A stretch of DNA of 20,000 bases. It comes from an uncultured virus (IMG/VR IMGVR_UViG_3300025675_000001). Its lineage: Duplodnaviria > Heunggongvirae > Uroviricota > Caudoviricetes > Schitoviridae. This document shows, piece by piece, positions 5,795-13,889 of the stretch. The notes beneath the pieces were generated by a model. That model had not been told where the DNA came from. It saw nothing but the letters and a program-made list of their open reading frames with translations, and did not search any database. The stretch is from IMG/VR virus record IMGVR_UViG_3300025675_000001. One strand, given 5' to 3'. The position numbers and the translations under genes are program-made. The first letter of the stretch is position 1. Each line of letters opens with the position of its first letter.

Positions 5795-5900
5795 GAGTGT
5801 AGGTGTGGTGGGAAATGAGGTGGGGGGTAGTGTGAAAAGTGTGTGGTGTGTTCCCGGGGGGGGAGGGTTTTCAGAATGGAGTCCCACCGGTGTGACAAAC

Positions 5901-5989
5901 CTACTGCCAGACGTAATTATGAGGTTCGCCAAACCCTGCGATCCTCTACTGCCAGACGTAGGTGTGGGATTCGCCAGACCCTGCGGATC
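5901..5989. repeat. Two-copy 45-bp imperfect direct repeat
   Basis: CTACTGCCAGACGTA-N9-TTCGCCA(A/G)ACCCTGCG at 5901 and 5946. Confidence 0.9.
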
Positions 5990-6017
5990 GTCATCTCGTG
6001 GATCAGTTTCACCATTG

Positions 6018-6193
6018 GAACCAGAAAGAGAAATGACCCTTCTCTGACCCTGCGGAGCATCTCTTGGAACCAGAGGGAAAGACGCATCCTTTGGAACCAG
6101 AAAGAGAGGATATCCCCTCCTTCGATCCGCCGAGCGATGCTCTCTTTGAACCAGAGGAAAATCCATCTCCCCTACCCTTCTCTCTGAACCAGA
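6018..6193 (+). repeat. Cluster of five GAACCAGA direct repeats
   Basis: Copies at 6018, 6067, 6094, 6148 and 6186, each followed by a purine run. Confidence 0.9.
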
Positions 6194-6204
6194 AAGAAGA
6201 GCAT

Positions 6205-6510
6205 CTCTTATTTTCAAATAATGATATACAAAAAATATTATGGGGATTTTTATATAGGGATTTTCCTTAATAATATATTGTATATCGTTTTATATATTAT
6301 CAAACATAATCCCGAAGGATTTTCTTTAAAACCGATTATATAGATAATACGTCTCTGATTTTCTTCATAATATATTATGAACTTAATACGCGAGATATTA
6401 TCTTCATAATATATTATGGAGTTAATAGAATAGGCTTTTCGAGATAATGTTTTTAAGATAATGGTCTTTTATTATATTTATAATATTATCTTTATAAGGG
6501 GGGTTCCCCC
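6205..6510. other. Very AT-rich non-coding tract with duplicated palindrome; candidate origin or terminal-repeat region
   Basis: Sharp GC drop. TCTTCATAATATATTATG at 6362 and 6401. Perfect palindrome TTCATAATATATTATGAA at 6364-6381. GGGGG-GTT-CCCCC hairpin at 6498-6510. Confidence 0.6.
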
Positions 6511-6615
6511 ATGATCCCTGGGTGAAACCTATCAGGTTTTACCAATAGCTTCGCCCGTCCGTCTTTTGTCCTTCTTTGAGAAGAAAAAAGGCAGAGGTAG
6601 GCCCGGTGAGGCAGG

Positions 6616-7401
6616 TTACAGCGTAGGGTCGGTAAAATGCTCTCTTTCCCTCGATCTGTAAAGCCCTCTCTTCACAGGAAGGGGGGGTCTTTTTTCTTCT
6701 GGCTCCCGAAAGGAAGGCCCCTTTGAAAGAGATGGGTATCCGTGGGGGTGGGTTTTTTGAACCCTATCAGGCTTCGAAACATCCTTGGATGTCCCCTTGG
6801 GACCACGCTTGAGCCAGGTCGTCCATTCCGCACAGACCACGGTGATCCTGTTCGGCAGGTTCTTGGCACCCCGGACACGTCGTTCTTCCACCTTGAGCAT
6901 GCCCATGGCACGGGCCTGACGGATGGCGTTCTGGGTGGTGGTACGAGACACCCCTGCCCGTGCAGCGATCTCGGCGAGGGTTCTCACACAAGCCCCCTTC
7001 CCTCTCCATTCATCCCCGATGATGCGCAGGACGGAGAGTTCGCCCGTGGTGAAATGAGCGGCGAGAGACGGAGGCACCGGACCGGTCGAAGCGAGCCGCC
7101 GACGGCGGGCGAGCGAAGACCGGGGGTCCGGTGCCGTCTGTTTGCGTCGGGGCGGGAAGATCGAAAACCGGGGACGGGAAATTTCTTCCCCCCTACGGGG
7201 GGAAGCGGATTTATTGCCAGCACTCCCAGCTTCAATCCCCTCCCCGCTTCGCAACAACTCGAGCTGCTCGGAGAATCGTTGTGCCTCGTTCTCGCTCAAC
7301 ATTCCCTGGGCCATCCCGCCCCAGATGGTGCGTGAGATCTCGTCGAACATCGTCCGGCCACGCGCCATCGACAGCGCGACCGTGATCTGGTCTGCCAGCA
7401 T
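6616..7401 (-). CDS. HTH-domain putative plasmid replication initiator (alphaproteobacterial Rep-like, 261 aa)
   Basis: HTH TLAEIAARAGVSRTTTQNAIRQARAMGMLKVEER and SLARRRRLA...FTTGELSVLRII...NLPNRITVV..EWTTWL resemble a Rhizobiales mobile-element HTH family. Divergent from parA. The Rep function is inferred from context. Confidence 0.6.
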   Translation of the reverse strand: MLADQITVALSMARGRTMFDEISRTIWGGMAQGMLSENEAQRFSEQLELLRSGEGIEAGSAGNKSASPRRGEEISRPRFSIFPPRRKQTAPDPRSSLARRRRLASTGPVPPSLAAHFTTGELSVLRIIGDEWRGKGACVRTLAEIAARAGVSRTTTQNAIRQARAMGMLKVEERRVRGAKNLPNRITVVCAEWTTWLKRGPKGTSKDVSKPDRVQKTHPHGYPSLSKGPSFREPEEKRPPLPVKRGLYRSREREHFTDPTL

Positions 7402-7461
7402 CTTTCATCCCTCAGCTTGGGATCCGGCAAACCTCCCCCGTTGCGAGAAATGACATTCCCA

Positions 7462-7491
7462 CTTGACGAAGGCTTCGAGCTTTGGGAATAT
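7462..7491 (+). promoter_or_regulatory. Sigma70-type promoter for the putative counter-transcribed RNA
   Basis: CTTGACG (-35, alphaproteobacterial CTTGAC consensus), 17 nt, GAATAT (-10, 7486-7491). Confidence 0.55.
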
Positions 7492-7496
7492 CGATG

Positions 7497-7568
7497 TCGC
7501 CAAACGTCGATATTTCCTCGGCCCTGCCGAATCATGTGACCCGCCCTCAGTGGCGGGTTTCGTGTTTC
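7497..7568 (+). ncRNA. Putative antisense copy-number control RNA (ctRNA) opposite the rep leader
   Basis: Bounded by the promoter above and a terminator ACCCGCC-CTCAGT-GGCGGGT-TTCGTGTTT (7539-7567). Begins with CGCCAA, complementary to a UUGGCG loop in the rep-strand leader. Confidence 0.55.
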
Positions 7569-7594
7569 TGGTCTCTCTGGTTCCCTTCTGGTTC
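7567..7594 (-). repeat. Tandem TCTGGT(TC) repeats (reverse complement of GAACCAGA) between rep and parA
   Basis: TCTGGTCT 7567, TCTGGTTC 7576 and TCTGGTTC 7587; the last two are 11 bp apart. Confidence 0.75.
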
Positions 7595-7766
7595 CAGTCG
7601 TCGAATCGTGGCGCAAATCAGATGCACCAACGCGGCATTGGAAACGGATCAGGGGGGTGCGTCAACCACAGCGTATTGGGTTGACTCATTTCGGGACATG
7701 CGCTGGGGGCTTACAATATCTTGTGAAATGTGTAAGGTTCCGGCTTCTGTACGGAGCAACCCCCAC

Positions 7767-8420
7767 ATGATCATTTCCTTCCTCAATCAGAAGGGTGGAG
7801 TGGGCAAGACAACCCTCTCCATCAATGTCGCAGGATACTTGGCCAATCAGGGTCACAAGGTTCTGCTGATCGATGCCGACAAGCAGGCATCTTCCTCGAC
7901 CTGGGCTTCGCTCAGGGAGGAGCCGACATTTCAGGTCGTCAACCTGGCCAGGAGCAATATGGCCAAGGAAGCGATCGCCATGGCGGCGGATTACGACCAC
8001 ACCATCATCGATGGACCACCCCACGCAGAAGAGATTGCGCGCTCGTGCATCATCGCCTCGGATTACGTGGTGTTGCCGATCGAACCGTCCGGTCTCTCCA
8101 CCTGGGCCACGGATCTGACCGTGCGGCAAGTCAAGGAAGCCCGCGATTTCAAGCCGTATCTGGAATGTGGGTTAGTGGTTTCCCGCAAAATAGGGAATAC
8201 GGTTATCGGGCGGGACATCCGCAACATGGCCGCCAATGTCGGCATGCCGATCCTCCAGACCGAGATTGAGCAGCGGGTGGCCTTCGCCGAGAGCCTGACC
8301 ATGGGGCAGACCATATTCGAATGGGCGGCGGAGAGCGCCGCCGCCCGCGAAATCGAGCAACTCACCAAAGAGATCATGAGCCATGTCGAAGAAGACGTTT
8401 TCACTGGTGCCGAAGCCTAA
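7767..8420 (+). CDS. parA: Type Ib ParA (ParF-like) partition ATPase (217 aa)
   Basis: MIISFLNQKGGVGKTT deviant Walker A, VLLIDAD, IIDGPP Walker B. No N-terminal HTH. GGAG RBS. Confidence 0.95.
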   Translation: MIISFLNQKGGVGKTTLSINVAGYLANQGHKVLLIDADKQASSSTWASLREEPTFQVVNLARSNMAKEAIAMAADYDHTIIDGPPHAEEIARSCIIASDYVVLPIEPSGLSTWATDLTVRQVKEARDFKPYLECGLVVSRKIGNTVIGRDIRNMAANVGMPILQTEIEQRVAFAESLTMGQTIFEWAAESAAAREIEQLTKEIMSHVEEDVFTGAEA

Positions 8421-8691
8421 CCAGAAGGTTCTCTCGGAGGAGCAGATCCGAGCCTATGAATCATCCGGTCCGGGCCATGACACCAACAAAGACAGCTACC
8501 GAACCCGTCCCGAGTTTGCCCACAAGACAGCTAGTGAGCCCATCAAGCGTTTGAGCCTCGATCTGCCACAATCCCTGCATCGCCGGTTCAAGATGGTATG
8601 CGTGGCAACCGATCGCAGAATGCTGGCAGAGATCCAGAACTTCATCGAGCAACGCACGGACGAACTGGAGAAGGAGGCCGGGATCAAATGA
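8383..8691 (+). CDS. ParG-like ribbon-helix-helix centromere-binding protein (102 aa)
   Basis: Overlaps the parA end. Flexible N-tail plus C-terminal KRLSLDLPQSLHRRFKMVCV...MLAEIQNFIE, an RHH signature. Confidence 0.85.
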   Translation: MSKKTFSLVPKPNQKVLSEEQIRAYESSGPGHDTNKDSYRTRPEFAHKTASEPIKRLSLDLPQSLHRRFKMVCVATDRRMLAEIQNFIEQRTDELEKEAGIK

Positions 8692-8804
8692 GAGAGGGAA
8701 GGGGCCGAGGAAACGCTGGGAGGAGCAGTCCCTTCCTCGGCCCCGATTCCCCGTCGCGGAAACCCACCAAACGCGCCAGGGAAACTGGAACAACCCTTTT
8801 GGGA

Positions 8805-8887
8805 TTTTCTCGAAAATGCGTCTTGAATATGCTACGAATTAATAGCAGAAATGTTTTCTCGTGCAAACGCATTTATTTTCGAGAAAA
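8805..8887. promoter_or_regulatory. AT-rich late-promoter region flanked by a 13-bp inverted repeat
   Basis: TTTTCTCGAAAAT (8805-8817) and ATTTTCGAGAAAA (8875-8887), with a partial copy TTTTCTCG at 8854. Directly upstream of the late operon. Confidence 0.5.
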
Positions 8888-8895
8888 GGGAACCC

Positions 8896-9687
8896 ATGAC
8901 GACGCCCTCTCTTTTCAACACGCCGCCGCTGCAACAGCCTCGAGCGGAACCAGCCCCGAACCAGAATCCGGTCGCTGAAGAAAGTCTGCCGGCTCTGAGC
9001 CAGGAAGAGGTGAAGCGCGCCTTGCCGGCGCATCTGCGCTCGGCCGTGACCCAGGAACTGACCGACAAGCTCAACACGATCGCTGCCGATCCGGTCATTG
9101 CCCAGAACATCCGCGACAATTTCGTGAGCTATTCAGGGATCCTGCGGGAAGGGAAATTCCGGGCCGACGAGTACATCAATGCCGTGGCCTATGTCAGCTA
9201 CAAGCTGATGGGCTATACCAACCATGACGCTTATACCCGCGTCTTTCCCCAGCGTTACGCCAATCTGGTCGCCAAGGGCACATTGCCCAAGGACATCGCC
9301 TCCATCGTGTCAGCCTACCACCGCGGTCGTCTGGTCAACCTGATCATGGAACAGTCCCTGGTGCCGACCTGGGTCTTGAATCAGGATCTCTTCCAGAAGG
9401 CCCTGAACGTCCAGGCCGATCTGATGCTGAACGCCAACTCGGAGAAGGTGCGCACGGAAGCGGCCAACTCGTTGCTCACCCATCTGAAGAAGCCTGAGGC
9501 CAACAAGGGCTTCCAGATCAACATCAACAACGAGGATTCCTCCGGCATGAAGGAAATGCGGGAGATGATGGTTCAGCTTGCCGAACAGCAGCGGGGTCTG
9601 ATTGCCGAGGGCAACATGAAGACGATCGATGTGGCAGGTTCCCGTCTGGTTCAGCGTCCCGCACCGGAGGACGTGAGTGATGTCTGA
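8896..9687 (+). CDS. N4 gp69-like protein (putative terminase small subunit, 263 aa)
   Basis: IRDNFVSYSGILREGKF...YINAVAYVSYKLMG...AYTRVFPQRY...SEKVRTEAANSLLTHLK is characteristic of N4-like gp69. Immediately upstream of terL. Confidence 0.85.
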   Translation: MTTPSLFNTPPLQQPRAEPAPNQNPVAEESLPALSQEEVKRALPAHLRSAVTQELTDKLNTIAADPVIAQNIRDNFVSYSGILREGKFRADEYINAVAYVSYKLMGYTNHDAYTRVFPQRYANLVAKGTLPKDIASIVSAYHRGRLVNLIMEQSLVPTWVLNQDLFQKALNVQADLMLNANSEKVRTEAANSLLTHLKKPEANKGFQININNEDSSGMKEMREMMVQLAEQQRGLIAEGNMKTIDVAGSRLVQRPAPEDVSDV

Positions 9688-11326
9688 GGTCGCCGACGAC
9701 CACATCATGCACTCCATGTCGGATCGGGTCATCATCAAGAAGGCTCTGGATGAATGGCTCGATGAGGTCGATTACGCGGATCTCAACGACGGCTCCTACG
9801 TGCCTTCGCAGTTCTCCCTGATCTTCATGAATTTCATCAAGCTGGTGAACGGGGAGGAAGGCGAGAGCCACAAGACCCCGCCCGTGCATCTGAAGATGCT
9901 CGACAAGCTCACCAGTCCCGCAAGCCAAATCGTCAACCTGTGTTTCCGTGGTGCGGCCAAGACCACGCTCTTCTTCGAGTACCTGATCCTGTTCCTGGCC
10001 TTCTACGGCTACCTGCCGGGATTCGGCAAGATCGAGGCGATGATCTACGTCTCCGATTCGATGGAGAACGGCGTCAAGGCAGCCCGCAAGAACGTCGAGT
10101 TCCGCTACCACAACAGTGCGTTCCTGCAGGAATGGATCCCCCAGGCCCACTTCACCGACAATTACATCGAGTTCACCAACCGGGATGGACACCGGCTGGG
10201 CTGCAAGATGTTTGGCGCCAAGACCGGTCTGCGCGGTACGAAGATCTTCGGCAAGCGCCCGCCGCTGGCCGTGCTCGACGACCTTGTCTCGGATGACGAT
10301 GCCAAATCCAGGGCTTCGATGGAGGCGATCAAGGACACGGTCTACAAGGGGGTGAATTACGCTCTGGATCCGACCCGCCGCAAGATCATCTTCAACGGCA
10401 CGCCTTTCAACAAGGACGACATCATGATCGAGGCGGTCGAATCCGGCGCCTGGGATGTGAACGTCTGGCCGGTCTGTGAACGCTTCCCGTGCTCGAAGGA
10501 GGAGTTCATCGGCGCCTGGGAGGACCGCTTCGATTACGACTTCATCGTCGAGCAATACCAGAATGCCGTTCTGACCGGGAAGGTCGAGGGCTTCATGCAG
10601 GAGCTGATGTTGCGCATCTCCTCCGAAGAGGAGCGTCTCGTTCAGGATGCCGAGATCCGGGAATATTCCCGCGTCCAGCTGCTCAGCCGGCGCAACCAGT
10701 TCAACTTCTACATCACCACCGACTTCGCCACCTCCGACAAGCAGACGGCGGATTTCTCGGTGATCTCGGTCTGGGCCTACAATTCTCAGGGCGACTGGTT
10801 CTGGGTCGATGGTGAATGCGAACGCCAGACCATGGACAAGACCGTCAACACCCTGTTCCGGATGGTCTCGGAATACCGGCCACAGAGTGTCGGGATCGAG
10901 GTCTCGGGTCAGCAGCTGGCCTTCATCAAGTGGCTGCAGTCGGAAATGATGCAGCGTAACATCTGGTTCAATTTCGCTTCTTCGGAGAAGTCCGGCGCCC
11001 CGGGCATCCGACCGATCCAGAACAAGCTCACCCGCTTCAATCTGGTGGTGCCTCTGTTCAAGGCCGGCAAGATGTATTTCCCGCAGGAATGGAAGACCTC
11101 GAAGATCATGGGGCACTTCTATGGCCAGATCCGCCTGGCCACCAAGAACGGACTCAAGGGCAAGGATGACTGCATCGATACGATCTCGATGCTGATGTAC
11201 CTGAATGCCTGGAAACCGACCCAGGAGGATGAGCGGCCCATGATCGGGCACAATGGCGGGCCGGATATGTTTGCGGATGATGAGATTGAAGAAAATCCCT
11301 CATCCTTGAGCTCTTATATCGTTTGA
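9680..11326 (+). CDS. terL: Terminase large subunit, N4 gp68-like
   Basis: FRGAAKTT Walker A, LAVLDDL Walker B, FNGTPF, nuclease motifs YITTDFA and DDCIDTISML. GGAGG RBS (GTG 9677 is an alternative start). Confidence 0.96.
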   Translation: MSEVADDHIMHSMSDRVIIKKALDEWLDEVDYADLNDGSYVPSQFSLIFMNFIKLVNGEEGESHKTPPVHLKMLDKLTSPASQIVNLCFRGAAKTTLFFEYLILFLAFYGYLPGFGKIEAMIYVSDSMENGVKAARKNVEFRYHNSAFLQEWIPQAHFTDNYIEFTNRDGHRLGCKMFGAKTGLRGTKIFGKRPPLAVLDDLVSDDDAKSRASMEAIKDTVYKGVNYALDPTRRKIIFNGTPFNKDDIMIEAVESGAWDVNVWPVCERFPCSKEEFIGAWEDRFDYDFIVEQYQNAVLTGKVEGFMQELMLRISSEEERLVQDAEIREYSRVQLLSRRNQFNFYITTDFATSDKQTADFSVISVWAYNSQGDWFWVDGECERQTMDKTVNTLFRMVSEYRPQSVGIEVSGQQLAFIKWLQSEMMQRNIWFNFASSEKSGAPGIRPIQNKLTRFNLVVPLFKAGKMYFPQEWKTSKIMGHFYGQIRLATKNGLKGKDDCIDTISMLMYLNAWKPTQEDERPMIGHNGGPDMFADDEIEENPSSLSSYIV

Positions 11327-12105: not shown

Positions 12106-13337
12106 TGGCTATTCGGACCGTCTTCCACCCTGATGGGAACCAATCCGTACTCGTCGATAAGATGCTCGGCGAGTCCTACACCGTTGTGCGGACTGTGGCC
12201 GAGCACCTAGATTACGTGAAGCACGTCTCCACCCACATGGCGGAAGTCTTCCGGGTGCATGGTTCGATCAGTGCGATCGACAAGCTCAACGAGGAGATCC
12301 TCAAGCTCGATCTGCTCTACAACCACATCACCGAACTCCTGGTGATCGACACCAACATGCCGGCACTGGTTGGTCTTCACGACAACCTGTCGGCATTGCT
12401 GGATCTGTATGCGATCCGGGCCCAGCTGCTCGTGGTCCATGACGACCTCGCCAATGTGGTGACCGTGGCCACCAACATCGCTGCGGTGAACAGTGTCGCC
12501 ACCAACATGACCGAGCTGCTGGCCATTCATGCCAACCTGACCCAGCTGCTTTATGTCGCCGACAACATGCAGACCTTCCTCGATGAGCTCGACACGCTCA
12601 TGGCGATGGACGGGCGCATTGGACAGCTTGAGACCGATCTACCGGCGCTGACCACCCGGGTCACCAATGCAGAGAATGCGGCCGTGACCCTGACAGGCCG
12701 GGTCACCACGGCAGAGGATGACATTGATGCGCTCGAAGGGCGCATGACCACGGCAGAAGGCACGCTGACGACACATGGGGGCCGACTGAACACGGCAGAG
12801 GGGGATGTCACCAGTCTGCAAGGGCGAATGACCACCGCCGAAGGCGACATCACTGCGGTCGAAGGGCGAGTTACCACGGTTGAGAATGAGGCCGCCCTGC
12901 TGGAGCCCCGGGTCACCGCCGTCGAGAACGGCAAGCAGGATCAATCTGCCAACCTGACCACGCTGGCCGGGATCACCCCCGGCGCCACAGGCCAGGCCCT
13001 GCTGGAAACCACCACACCTGCGGCAGCCCGCACGGCAATCGGCGCCATCACCGCCAGCGAACTGATCGTCGGCAGTATCACGCATGACTGGCCGGCGCTT
13101 GCCGACAACGCCTCGGATTCCCACGACTTCACCCTGAACGGCGTGGCGACAGGGGATGTGGTGCTCGGGTTCTCCATCAATCTGGGAGCATCCACGAACC
13201 GCGTGCTGATGTCAGCCCAGGTGACAGGCGCCAACACCATCACGGTGTCACGCTTCAACCTGTCCGGGGTCTCCGTCGATCTGACCTCGGCCACACACCG
13301 TTTCGTCGTTCTGCCTCAGGCCAACTGGGGTCTGTGA
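12105..13337 (+). CDS. N4 gp66-like appendage/fibre protein with coiled-coil stalk (410 aa)
   Basis: N-terminal LVDKMLGESYTVVRTVAEHL anchor typical of N4-like fibres. 14-aa R(V/M)TTAEGD repeats. C-terminal beta-rich domain. Confidence 0.75.
   Translation: MAIRTVFHPDGNQSVLVDKMLGESYTVVRTVAEHLDYVKHVSTHMAEVFRVHGSISAIDKLNEEILKLDLLYNHITELLVIDTNMPALVGLHDNLSALLDLYAIRAQLLVVHDDLANVVTVATNIAAVNSVATNMTELLAIHANLTQLLYVADNMQTFLDELDTLMAMDGRIGQLETDLPALTTRVTNAENAAVTLTGRVTTAEDDIDALEGRMTTAEGTLTTHGGRLNTAEGDVTSLQGRMTTAEGDITAVEGRVTTVENEAALLEPRVTAVENGKQDQSANLTTLAGITPGATGQALLETTTPAAARTAIGAITASELIVGSITHDWPALADNASDSHDFTLNGVATGDVVLGFSINLGASTNRVLMSAQVTGANTITVSRFNLSGVSVDLTSATHRFVVLPQANWGL
12651..12929 (+). repeat. About seven 42-bp (14-aa) coding repeats forming a coiled coil
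   Basis: RVTNAEN, RVTTAED, RMTTAEG, RLNTAEG, RMTTAEG, RVTTVEN, RVTAVEN at 14-aa spacing. Confidence 0.85.
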
Positions 13338-13355
13338 TCCAGATAAGGAGCTTCC

Positions 13356-13889
13356 ATGAGTGATGAAGACGATCCGTTGATGGAGGGGTATGTTCCTCGC
13401 GAGGGGATCATCGACACATCCCGTTCCAGTCGCCGGATCCGTGACACCGAATTCGAGCGGCGCAAGGAGGAGATCAAATTCTCCACGGCGCAGCTCACCT
13501 TCGATGAGCGTGGAACAGGGACGGAATCGCCTGCCCAGGTCGTGGTTCTCACCAATACCGGCTACGGCGATGTCCATATCTTCGGCTCAACCCTGACCGG
13601 TGACTTCGTGGTGAAGTCGCCGATCCCTTCGCGTCTCCAACCAGGGGAACATGCCGCGATCCAGATCGCCTTCGCTCCGACGACGATCGGCCAGCATATC
13701 GGCAGCCTCTACATCGATACCGGTGATGCGGCGGGTGATGAACTCGTTGCTCTCTCTGGTTCCGCCGTCGCCGGGGATCTCGGCATTGCTCCGACAGATG
13801 ATATTCAGGCGATCCTGAAGATGACCCAGTCGGAATACAACGCCCTGGACCCCAAAGATCCGCAAACGCTCTACATCATCGTGGGATAA
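13356..13889 (+). CDS. Virion protein with ASH/Ig-like domain and C-terminal fibre-docking motif (177 aa)
   Basis: LTF...QVVVLTNTG...LQPGEHAAIQIAFAPTTIG...VALSG is an ASH (ASPM-SPD-2-Hydin)-like Ig fold. Ends MTQSEYNALDPKDPQTLYIIVG. AAGGAG RBS. Confidence 0.75.
   Translation: MSDEDDPLMEGYVPREGIIDTSRSSRRIRDTEFERRKEEIKFSTAQLTFDERGTGTESPAQVVVLTNTGYGDVHIFGSTLTGDFVVKSPIPSRLQPGEHAAIQIAFAPTTIGQHIGSLYIDTGDAAGDELVALSGSAVAGDLGIAPTDDIQAILKMTQSEYNALDPKDPQTLYIIVG

Follow-up and report, generated by a model that had tools for sequence, protein, structure and literature searches.

A conserved structured RNA opposite the leader of a rep-like winged-helix gene, most likely a new family of antisense switches

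The rep-like gene and its control region

The 20,000-nucleotide (nt) stretch considered here, referred to throughout as the window, comes from an uncultured virus (IMG/VR record IMGVR_UViG_3300025675_000001) and carries, at 6616-7401 on the - strand, a gene for a 261-amino-acid winged-helix protein, which is termed 'rep-like' and which belongs to a PHROG family of unknown function (phrog_15967, 1.7e-63). The region upstream of this gene contains a series of hairpins, mostly read on the + strand, and this structured RNA opposite the rep-like leader most likely represents a new family of antisense switches of the classic kind, by which genes of this type are held in check. On the far side of the hairpins, a ParA partition ATPase is encoded on the + strand at 7767-8420, divergent from the rep-like gene (NCBIfam NF041546 at 1.9e-71, above the cut-off; Pfam AAA_31/CbiA). 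Just past the rep-like stop codon lies an AT-rich, repeat-dense segment of about 300 bp (6210-6500), which contains repeated 14-18-nt motifs (e.g., three copies around TTCATAATATATT) and 22 inverted-repeat pairs, and which is a candidate replication origin. The candidate origin, the rep-like gene, the control region (7440-7570), and parA would thus form a module inside an N4-like phage genome.

Seen from the + strand, the control region opens with HP0 (7443-7462), a 7-bp hairpin of the rep-strand leader that aligns to the HP0 of the family model described below, that has the loop UGUCAU on the - strand, and that is not followed by any canonical - strand terminator. Directly downstream of HP0 in this orientation is the most conserved motif of the region, the -35-like hexamer TTGACG (7463-7468, + strand). 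Read with its neighbours, the + strand sequence is CTTGACG at 7462-7468, a 17-nt spacer (7469-7485), and GAATAT at 7486-7491, the last of which is a candidate -10 hexamer that lies inside the 5' arm of the next hairpin, HP1. HP1 (7484-7517) has 14 bp, can be drawn on both strands, and has a loop (7498-7503) that reads CGCCAA on the + strand and UUGGCG on the rep strand. An inverted repeat around CGCCAA had already been described in the original prediction, and it turns out to be longer than was claimed there: the inverted-repeat search gave arms at 7484-7497/7504-7517, of 14 nt each, 86% complementary and 6 nt apart, and on folding of the + strand 14/14 positions pair, two of them as G.U. HP1 is followed on the + strand by HP2 (7518-7530), a short 5-bp hairpin obtained from folding, and by an intrinsic terminator (7533-7568), which consists of a core stem (7538-7545/7552-7559), outer pairs (7533-7536/7561-7564), and a T-rich tail. 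A consensus scan found a terminator-like site here on the + strand only, with a stem of 8 pairs (7538-7559, 6 of them G-C), a 6-nt loop, and the tail TCGTGTTTCT.

The + strand from 7484 to 7572 folds into these three hairpins, HP1, HP2, and the terminator, with -44.8 kcal/mol and a z of -6.53, and 0/200 shuffles were equally stable. Folding of the - strand from 7402 to 7572 gave a z of -2.43, with 2/200 shuffles equally stable. A small open reading frame (ORF) that spans part of the same DNA (7463-7684, 73 amino acids) was rejected as a gene because it has no PHROG match and because the region varies by insertions and deletions.

Conservation, covariation, and strand selection

Relatives of the rep-like protein number at least 504 at E <= 0.001, and the protein is encoded on 87 plasmid records, 46 of which are from Methylobacterium and most of which are 9-76 kb long. 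For the comparison, 136 loci were fetched, and in 101 of them the gene's N-terminus could be located and was preceded by >= 150 nt of upstream sequence; once the window's own 5 copies (L001, L040, L055-L057) and 3 duplicate loci (L017, L061, L072) had been excluded, the remaining set comprised 93 loci, 89 of which have >= 300 nt upstream. The same layout was found to recur upstream of the gene, which, in the + orientation of the window, consists of HP0, (C/G)TTGAC, a spacer, the longer hairpin HP1, and a GC-rich hairpin with a T-rich tail. The spacer after TTGAC is itself a small hairpin in many relatives. An HP2 between HP1 and the terminator is found in the subgroup to which the window belongs, and the majority type has two hairpins. 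Both the TTGAC-like motif and the terminator hairpin could be located in 57 loci, and in 45 of these the motif lies 94-102 nt from the hairpin's end; in the window this distance is 102 nt.

Three covariance models were used: R1, built from the window sequence alone with its predicted three-hairpin structure; R2, built from the relative L044 alone; and R3, the family model. Matches to R3 or R1 revealed the element in 49/55 non-redundant loci at >= 36% protein identity and in 7/34 below 36%, and all full-length matches lie immediately upstream of the gene, on its opposite strand. With R1, E values of 1.4e-7 to 2.9e-20 were obtained for 11 further loci, and R2 gave 39 matches at E <= 0.001, counts to be read with the caveat that single-sequence models overlook cases visible by eye. 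Among the R2 matches is the window (7440-7571 on the + strand, 25.8 bits, E 6.9e-4), and the three-hairpin subgroup and the two-hairpin majority therefore belong to one family. R3 also detected the element in the plasmids pAU40rrn and pSS37A-Re-6 and before both copies of the gene in plasmid pE. A search with covariance models upstream of the rep-like homologues had been suggested together with the original prediction, and its outcome is that the element is conserved and that its stems covary.

The extent of this covariation was assessed in model-based alignments, since the MAFFT alignments were out of register in HP1 and were not used for counts. In the subgroup (12 sequences), 92.0% of the cells are paired, against 75.2 +/- 1.4 in shuffles, two-sided changes affect 21/31 pairs, against 11.9 +/- 1.8, and 0/500 shuffles attain the observed value on any measure; because the sequences are related, such shuffle counts are not probabilities. 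When the partners are slid by 1-3 columns, pairing falls to 39-50% and the covariation score drops from 0.537 to 0.058-0.120. The two-sided changes concern 11/14 pairs of HP1, 5/5 of HP2, 2/4 of the outer terminator pairs, and 3/8 of the core terminator stem, in which 4 pairs are invariant. In the family (38 distinct rows), 92.3% of the cells are paired, against 61.8 +/- 0.9 in shuffles, 39/40 pairs change on both sides, and the covariation score is 0.745, against 0.087-0.137 in the slid alignments. All of these figures come from alignments that were fitted to the model structures, a bias that favours pairing and that has to be set against the interpretation given below.

The strand on which the structures act is indicated by the G.U pairs, which only the strand that folds as RNA can tolerate and which correspond to A.C mismatches on the opposite strand. 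In the family alignment, the terminator has 72 cells with G.U on the + strand versus 1 with A.C (that is, with G.U on the - strand), and for HP0 these counts are 1 versus 17. The spacer hairpin has 11 versus 3, and HP1 has 28 versus 14. Within the subgroup, the terminator and its outer pairs have 23 versus 0, HP2 has 3 versus 0, and HP1 has 20 versus 8, a strand preference that is not decisive. The folding of the terminator is stronger on the + strand in 53/55 loci, and its T-rich tail is conserved on the + strand only. For HP0, folding favours the - strand in 31/54 loci and the + strand in 11, and the HP0 of the window (7443-7462) folds on the - strand only (-6.6 versus -0.2 kcal/mol).

This asymmetry implies that the RNA under selection is a + strand one to the right of TTGAC and a - strand one to its left. 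A terminator on the + strand and HP0 on the rep strand are, at the level of sequence, the signature of two converging transcripts, a putative countertranscript and its target mRNA. Two earlier claims thereby gain in strength, namely that there is a + strand terminator (which the scan placed at 7538-7568 and which is the selected strand by 72 to 1) and that the + strand element is antisense to the rep-like leader, with which gene it is conserved and opposite which its stems covary.

A predicted countertranscript and its alternatives

Since the candidate -10 hexamer lies inside the 5' arm of HP1, the small RNA would lack this arm and would have CGCCAA in a free 5' tail. Transcription would start about 7 nt past the -10, at the loop (about 7497-7499), and the predicted + strand RNA would then be ~70 nt long (7498-7568), with a 5' tail beginning with CGCCAA, followed by HP2 and the terminator. 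In the fold of 7498-7570 (-26.9 kcal/mol, z -3.36), CGCCAAAC is unpaired. HP1 would be formed by the rep-strand RNA only, with UUGGCG in its loop. Inspection by eye revealed a GAnnnT hexamer 17-18 nt past the -35 in 11/12 subgroup members and no promoter upstream of HP1 that would place the whole hairpin in the small RNA. The first contact between the two RNAs would be loop-to-tail pairing, as in hok/sok or p42d, and not kissing of the CopA type. According to one source, the 5' tail of the antisense RNA of hok/sok pairs with the loop of the target hairpin, the same has been suggested for the repABC plasmid p42d, and a U-turn of the YUNR pattern is described as a general enhancer of pairing (PMC4485353).

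The hexamers UUGGCG and CGCCAA recur in the hairpin loops of the family, not always on the same RNA. In the two-hairpin relatives, the terminator loop of the + strand RNA has TTGGCG in 16, TTGCCG in 11, TTCCCG in 3, and CGCCAA in 2 of 38 sequences, and in the HP1 loop of the subgroup, CGCCAA is present in 4/12 members and TGCCAA or TGCCAC in 2 more. The YUNR pattern is matched by the UUGGCG loop of the rep-strand HP1 in the window and by the UUGGCG or UUGCCG terminator loop in 27/38 relatives, in each case as a fit of sequence only. The loop of HP0, too, is related to these motifs, since in 10/38 sequences a 5-mer is common to it and to the terminator loop of the same element, against 5.3 +/- 1.55 in shuffles, of which 10/2000 reach this count, a comparison that is weakened by the relatedness of the sequences. 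The agreement extends to the variants TTGCCG (L041) and GTGGCG (L049). It is possible that the HP0 loop of the mRNA, by complementarity to the terminator loop of the small RNA, provides a second contact site outside the antisense overlap.

Example relatives in which the loops of HP0 and of the terminator repeat one another are L044 (810-940), L041 (2328-2456), and L049 (2319-2450). A further motif, GGCAAA(G/C), found at 7426-7432 in the window (CUUUGCC on the rep strand), is kept by most relatives in the interval from HP0 to the start codon and resembles the UUGCCG loop motif. A pseudoknot between GGCAAAG (CUUUGCC on the mRNA) and the loops was considered: it fits the relatives with TTGCCG loops by eye and shows no covariation with those that have TTGGCG loops.

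We think it probable, with moderate confidence, that a small + strand countertranscript pairs with the rep-like leader and lowers the level of the winged-helix protein post-transcriptionally, in a control region of the replicon type (7440-7570). The non-coding countertranscript would run from the conserved TTGAC promoter to the intrinsic terminator (7538-7568). The rep-like mRNA would be read from the opposite strand across the same DNA, so as to form the complementary hairpins plus HP0, which would lie outside the overlap, and in the window the 5' end of the small RNA, with its CGCCAA, would pair with UUGGCG in the HP1 loop of the mRNA. Because this pairing would lower the protein after transcription, the winged-helix protein would be negatively tied to gene dosage, and if it is an initiator, the outcome would amount to copy-number control. 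Repression could result from a block to translation, from the loss of an activating long-range contact, or from cleavage of the duplex. We infer the start of transcription, the overlap with the mRNA, the pairing pathway, the way in which pairing reduces expression, and the role of the protein as an initiator.

Several results weigh against the countertranscript model. The promoter put forward in the original prediction, CTTGACG-17-GAATAT, stands insofar as the sequence is present and TTGAC is conserved, and it is weak insofar as it is absent from the list of the consensus scan, where it falls below the threshold because GAATAT agrees with TATAAT at only 3/6 positions. Relatives of the Methylobacterium type have no convincing -10 at 17 nt and have instead a TATGGC- or TATGAT-like hexamer at 12-14 nt. 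The lean of the HP1 G.U pairs to the + strand is compatible with an RNA that starts upstream of HP1. Terminator-like sites are common here, with 5 in 3 kb versus 3.4 +/- 1.8 expected; the feature rises above chance by its conservation in relatives and not by the window alone. A search of public RNA runs for positions 6000-9000 of the window found no run containing this DNA. As to the mRNA, no clear - strand promoter was found for the rep-like gene in the window, and TTGACG (7665-7660) with TCCAAT (7642-7637) is a - strand candidate picked by eye. Finally, when pairing of the antisense site was forbidden in 20 leaders, the accessibility of the ribosome-binding site (-16 to +3), as predicted without pseudoknots or kinetics, changed by >= 0.10 in 4 of them, down in 3 and up in 1; a change as inconsistent as this lends no support to a simple refolding model.

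One alternative, doubtful on balance but with a real chance of being right, is that the + strand RNA exists and is not a controller of copy number. The winged-helix protein would then be a regulator (for example, a maintenance or lysogeny switch), with an RNA of the immunity type, like P22 sar or P1 c4; other versions are that the RNA acts in trans, primes replication, or, in this phage, is a terminated leader ahead of parA. Such explanations draw on the nature of the protein, for which nothing was found above the cut-offs in Pfam or NCBIfam, and for which Pfam at E <= 0.01 gave only sub-threshold MarR_2, GntR, and HTH_11. In a structural model obtained with AlphaFold2 (pLDDT 74.8), the winged helix lies at ~119-199, and Foldseek matched it to generic winged helix-turn-helix proteins only (CodY, MarR; best E 6.7e-4); a sequence search of the PDB gave nothing below E 0.049. 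The Foldseek and PDB results speak against an initiator. In its favour, the protein has weak PHROG matches to phage replication-initiator families (1.6e-5 to 6e-4, in the helix-turn-helix region only), an AT-rich repeat region lies beside the gene, and ParA is encoded next to it.

The plasmids that carry the gene also provide arguments on both sides. The element is always found with this gene, and small plasmids that have the gene list no other annotated initiator: there is none among the 17 listed features of pSS37A-Re-6 (complete, 14 kb), none among the 10 of plasmid pE, and none among 20/26 features of pMPOP02 of Methylorubrum populi BJ001, a 23-kb phage-plasmid-like record that has MipZ/ParA, with the proviso that the PLSDB gene tables are incomplete by their own description. 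However, pAU40rrn of Aureimonas sp. AU40 (9.4 kb) has the gene and the element alongside a separate Rep_3 initiator (Rep3_N 8.7e-33), a result that goes against copy-number control by the element and that favours the alternative. The two genes of pAU40rrn may be separate replication or control systems. It had been argued that the antisense RNA would support the assignment of the gene as Rep independently, and this argument is not supported, since a bona fide Rep_3 initiator is present in pAU40rrn as well and since the fold of the protein matches generic winged-helix proteins; by itself, an antisense RNA is no proof of Rep identity. The sequence evidence as a whole leaves an initiator role of the winged-helix protein plausible.

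Two further points favour a role other than copy-number control: in the window, the RNA is directed towards parA, 200 nt away, and the identity of the HP0 and terminator loops in 10/38 sequences hints at pairing beyond simple cis-antisense. A role as parA leader is not general, however, because in most relatives only the end of an opposite-strand gene is found downstream of the terminator.

Two of these plasmids deserve a description of their own. On the rRNA-operon plasmid pAU40rrn (L137), 216-1028 and 7620-8554 are the Rep_3 initiator and the winged-helix gene with its element. The 14-kb plasmid pE of Methylobacterium sp. FF17 (L140) has two copies of the gene (1718-2743 and 12621-13616), each with its own RNA element.

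A broader version of the countertranscript model is unlikely. It holds that the element marks a widespread new type of alphaproteobacterial replicon, with a winged-helix initiator and its own countertranscript, in which a UUGGCG U-turn loop would contact two identical loops of the mRNA, those of the antisense site and of its HP0 mimic, in cis and in trans, and which would have been captured by an N4-like phage to give a phage-plasmid.

That there is no + strand RNA at all, and that the hairpins are the structured 5' leader of the rep-like mRNA, a cis element on the - strand, is very improbable. HP0 is indeed selected on the - strand, the - strand leader also folds (with the z of -2.43 given above), and no promoter passes the consensus scan. 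Against this, the 72 G.U cells of the terminator would be C.A mismatches on the - strand, versus 1 in the reverse case, the terminator is the more stable on the + strand in nearly all loci (53/55), its T-rich tail is kept on that strand alone, and TTGAC lies at a fixed distance from it. The G.U asymmetry argues against a leader-only element and equally against an operator that acts purely at the level of DNA. The idea that the inverted repeats are operators for a repressor and overlap a promoter, without any RNA structure, which could appeal to the overlap of HP1 with the candidate -10 and start site and to the indecisive strand preference of HP1, hardly merits belief, since the stems stay paired despite a near-complete turnover of sequence (with 11/14 and 39/40 pairs compensatory), the helix-turn-helix region of the neighbouring protein remains nearly invariant among its relatives meanwhile, and G.U asymmetry in HP0, HP2, and the terminator would be meaningless for double-stranded DNA.

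As to the phage itself, its large terminase (9677-11326) shares 72-76% identity with the terminases of phages of 70-76 kb such as Rhizobium phage RHph_X2_28B and Achromobacter phage JWAlpha, which we take to be N4-like. An identical stretch is present on a metagenome contig of 74,396 bases. A tblastn search of phage records with the rep-like gene returned only 4 records from 2 other phages, all of them partial; none of the other N4-like phages in the collection was found to carry the gene, and a nucleotide search of phage records with 6200-8500 gave no match. The module (5840-8900), which comprises the rep-like gene, the RNA element, and ParA, therefore looks acquired. Two other repeats were noticed around parA. 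A 10-nt inverted repeat between the terminator and parA (7658-7667/7679-7688) has GGTTGAC on both strands and could mark divergent promoters or serve parA and the rep-like gene as an operator. Beyond the small ORF that follows parA is a perfect, GC-rich hairpin of some length (8692-8754), which had only spurious sub-threshold microRNA matches and may represent a terminator or a partition site.

That replication genes can be under antisense control is textbook knowledge. To our knowledge, the known families of replication-control antisense RNAs derive from few plasmid groups. On the evidence of the sequences, a structured RNA family that has more than 50 covarying members and is linked to an uncharacterised winged-helix protein has apparently not been curated until now. 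The protein is carried by plasmids, by phage-plasmid-like elements, and by an N4-like phage, and the RNA family gives a handle for defining the replicon and its incompatibility groups. The element also allows a plasmid lifestyle to be tested in an N4-like phage, and through the family one can ask why unrelated antisense systems share the UUGGCG/CGCCAA loop motif.

Relation to known antisense systems

The element was compared with curated RNA families. A cmscan search of positions 6000-9000 of the window against Rfam 15 (E <= 10) gave 8 matches, none of which covers 7440-7572 and none of which is CopA (RF00042). In 10 relatives (E <= 1), neither ctRNA_p42d nor any other family was found for the element, and the only overlap was a sub-threshold match to 'sar' (27.8 bits versus a gathering score of 43) on the terminator hairpin of L041. 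It follows from the lack of a match that the element is not a member of CopA, ctRNA_p42d, or another curated family, though its proposed mode of action resembles theirs. A literature search that excluded subscription literature found no description of the RNA or of the protein family, and nothing specific on the UUGGCG/CGCCAA hexamer.

The nearest parallel in hosts and layout is the countertranscript of repABC plasmids, such as p42d. The likeness lies in the alphaproteobacterial host range, in the position opposite the leader of a replication gene, and in the possession of an own promoter (here a candidate) and an intrinsic terminator. In several relatives, the element moreover sits after the genes of a ParA-like and a small DNA-binding protein: in pSS37A-Re-6, the order is ParA-like ATPase, ribbon-helix-helix protein, small ORF, element, and gene, and a co-directional ParA homologue lies upstream in L006, L025, L027, and L028, whereas the parA of the window is divergent. 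Loop-to-5'-tail pairing, as envisaged here, is also a suggestion made for p42d (PMC4485353). The two systems differ in that the ctRNA_p42d model does not match, in that the target is not RepC (no Pfam RP-C match at E <= 0.01), and in that the RNA described here has two or three hairpins plus an HP0 confined to the mRNA.

The original prediction had assigned the element to the CopA/CopT type of kissing-loop control. The loop of CopT in R1 carries the same UUGGCG hexamer, and in both systems a rep leader is the target of an antisense RNA that has a structured recognition hairpin. This assignment is nevertheless not supported, because the Rfam search gave no CopA match and because the element's candidate promoter would place CGCCAA in the 5' tail, so that, with the predicted start, the kissing of two loops is not expected as the first step. 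No tap-like leader ORF turned up either, in work that did not include a systematic search for a conserved leader ORF.

The Inc RNA of the IncI-alpha/IncB/IncK plasmids, which acts on repZ of ColIb-P9, shares with the element a UUGGCG in the target loop opposite CGCCAA and a rep gene under antisense control. The 5'-rUUGGCG-3' motif of the Inc RNA target is reportedly named in the title of a 1998 article by Asano, Niimi and Yokoyama. The two nevertheless lack any similarity of sequence or model, no leader peptide or pseudoknot could be demonstrated here, and many relatives of the element have UUGGCG on the terminator loop of the antisense RNA and not on the target.

In its predicted anatomy, the small RNA resembles RNAII of pMV158 and Sok of hok/sok, in which a short single-stranded 5' tail is followed by a terminator hairpin and the tail makes the decisive contact (PMC4485353). 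It differs from them by its unrelated sequence and hosts and by its greater length, with the additional HP2; its target loop fits YUNR, unlike the loops of pMV158 as described in the same paper (PMC4485353). The general marks of a countertranscript are nevertheless to be seen in this element, which lies opposite the leader of the gene that it would control, has an intrinsic terminator on the antisense strand, and possesses a secondary structure that is conserved in the model-fitted alignments.

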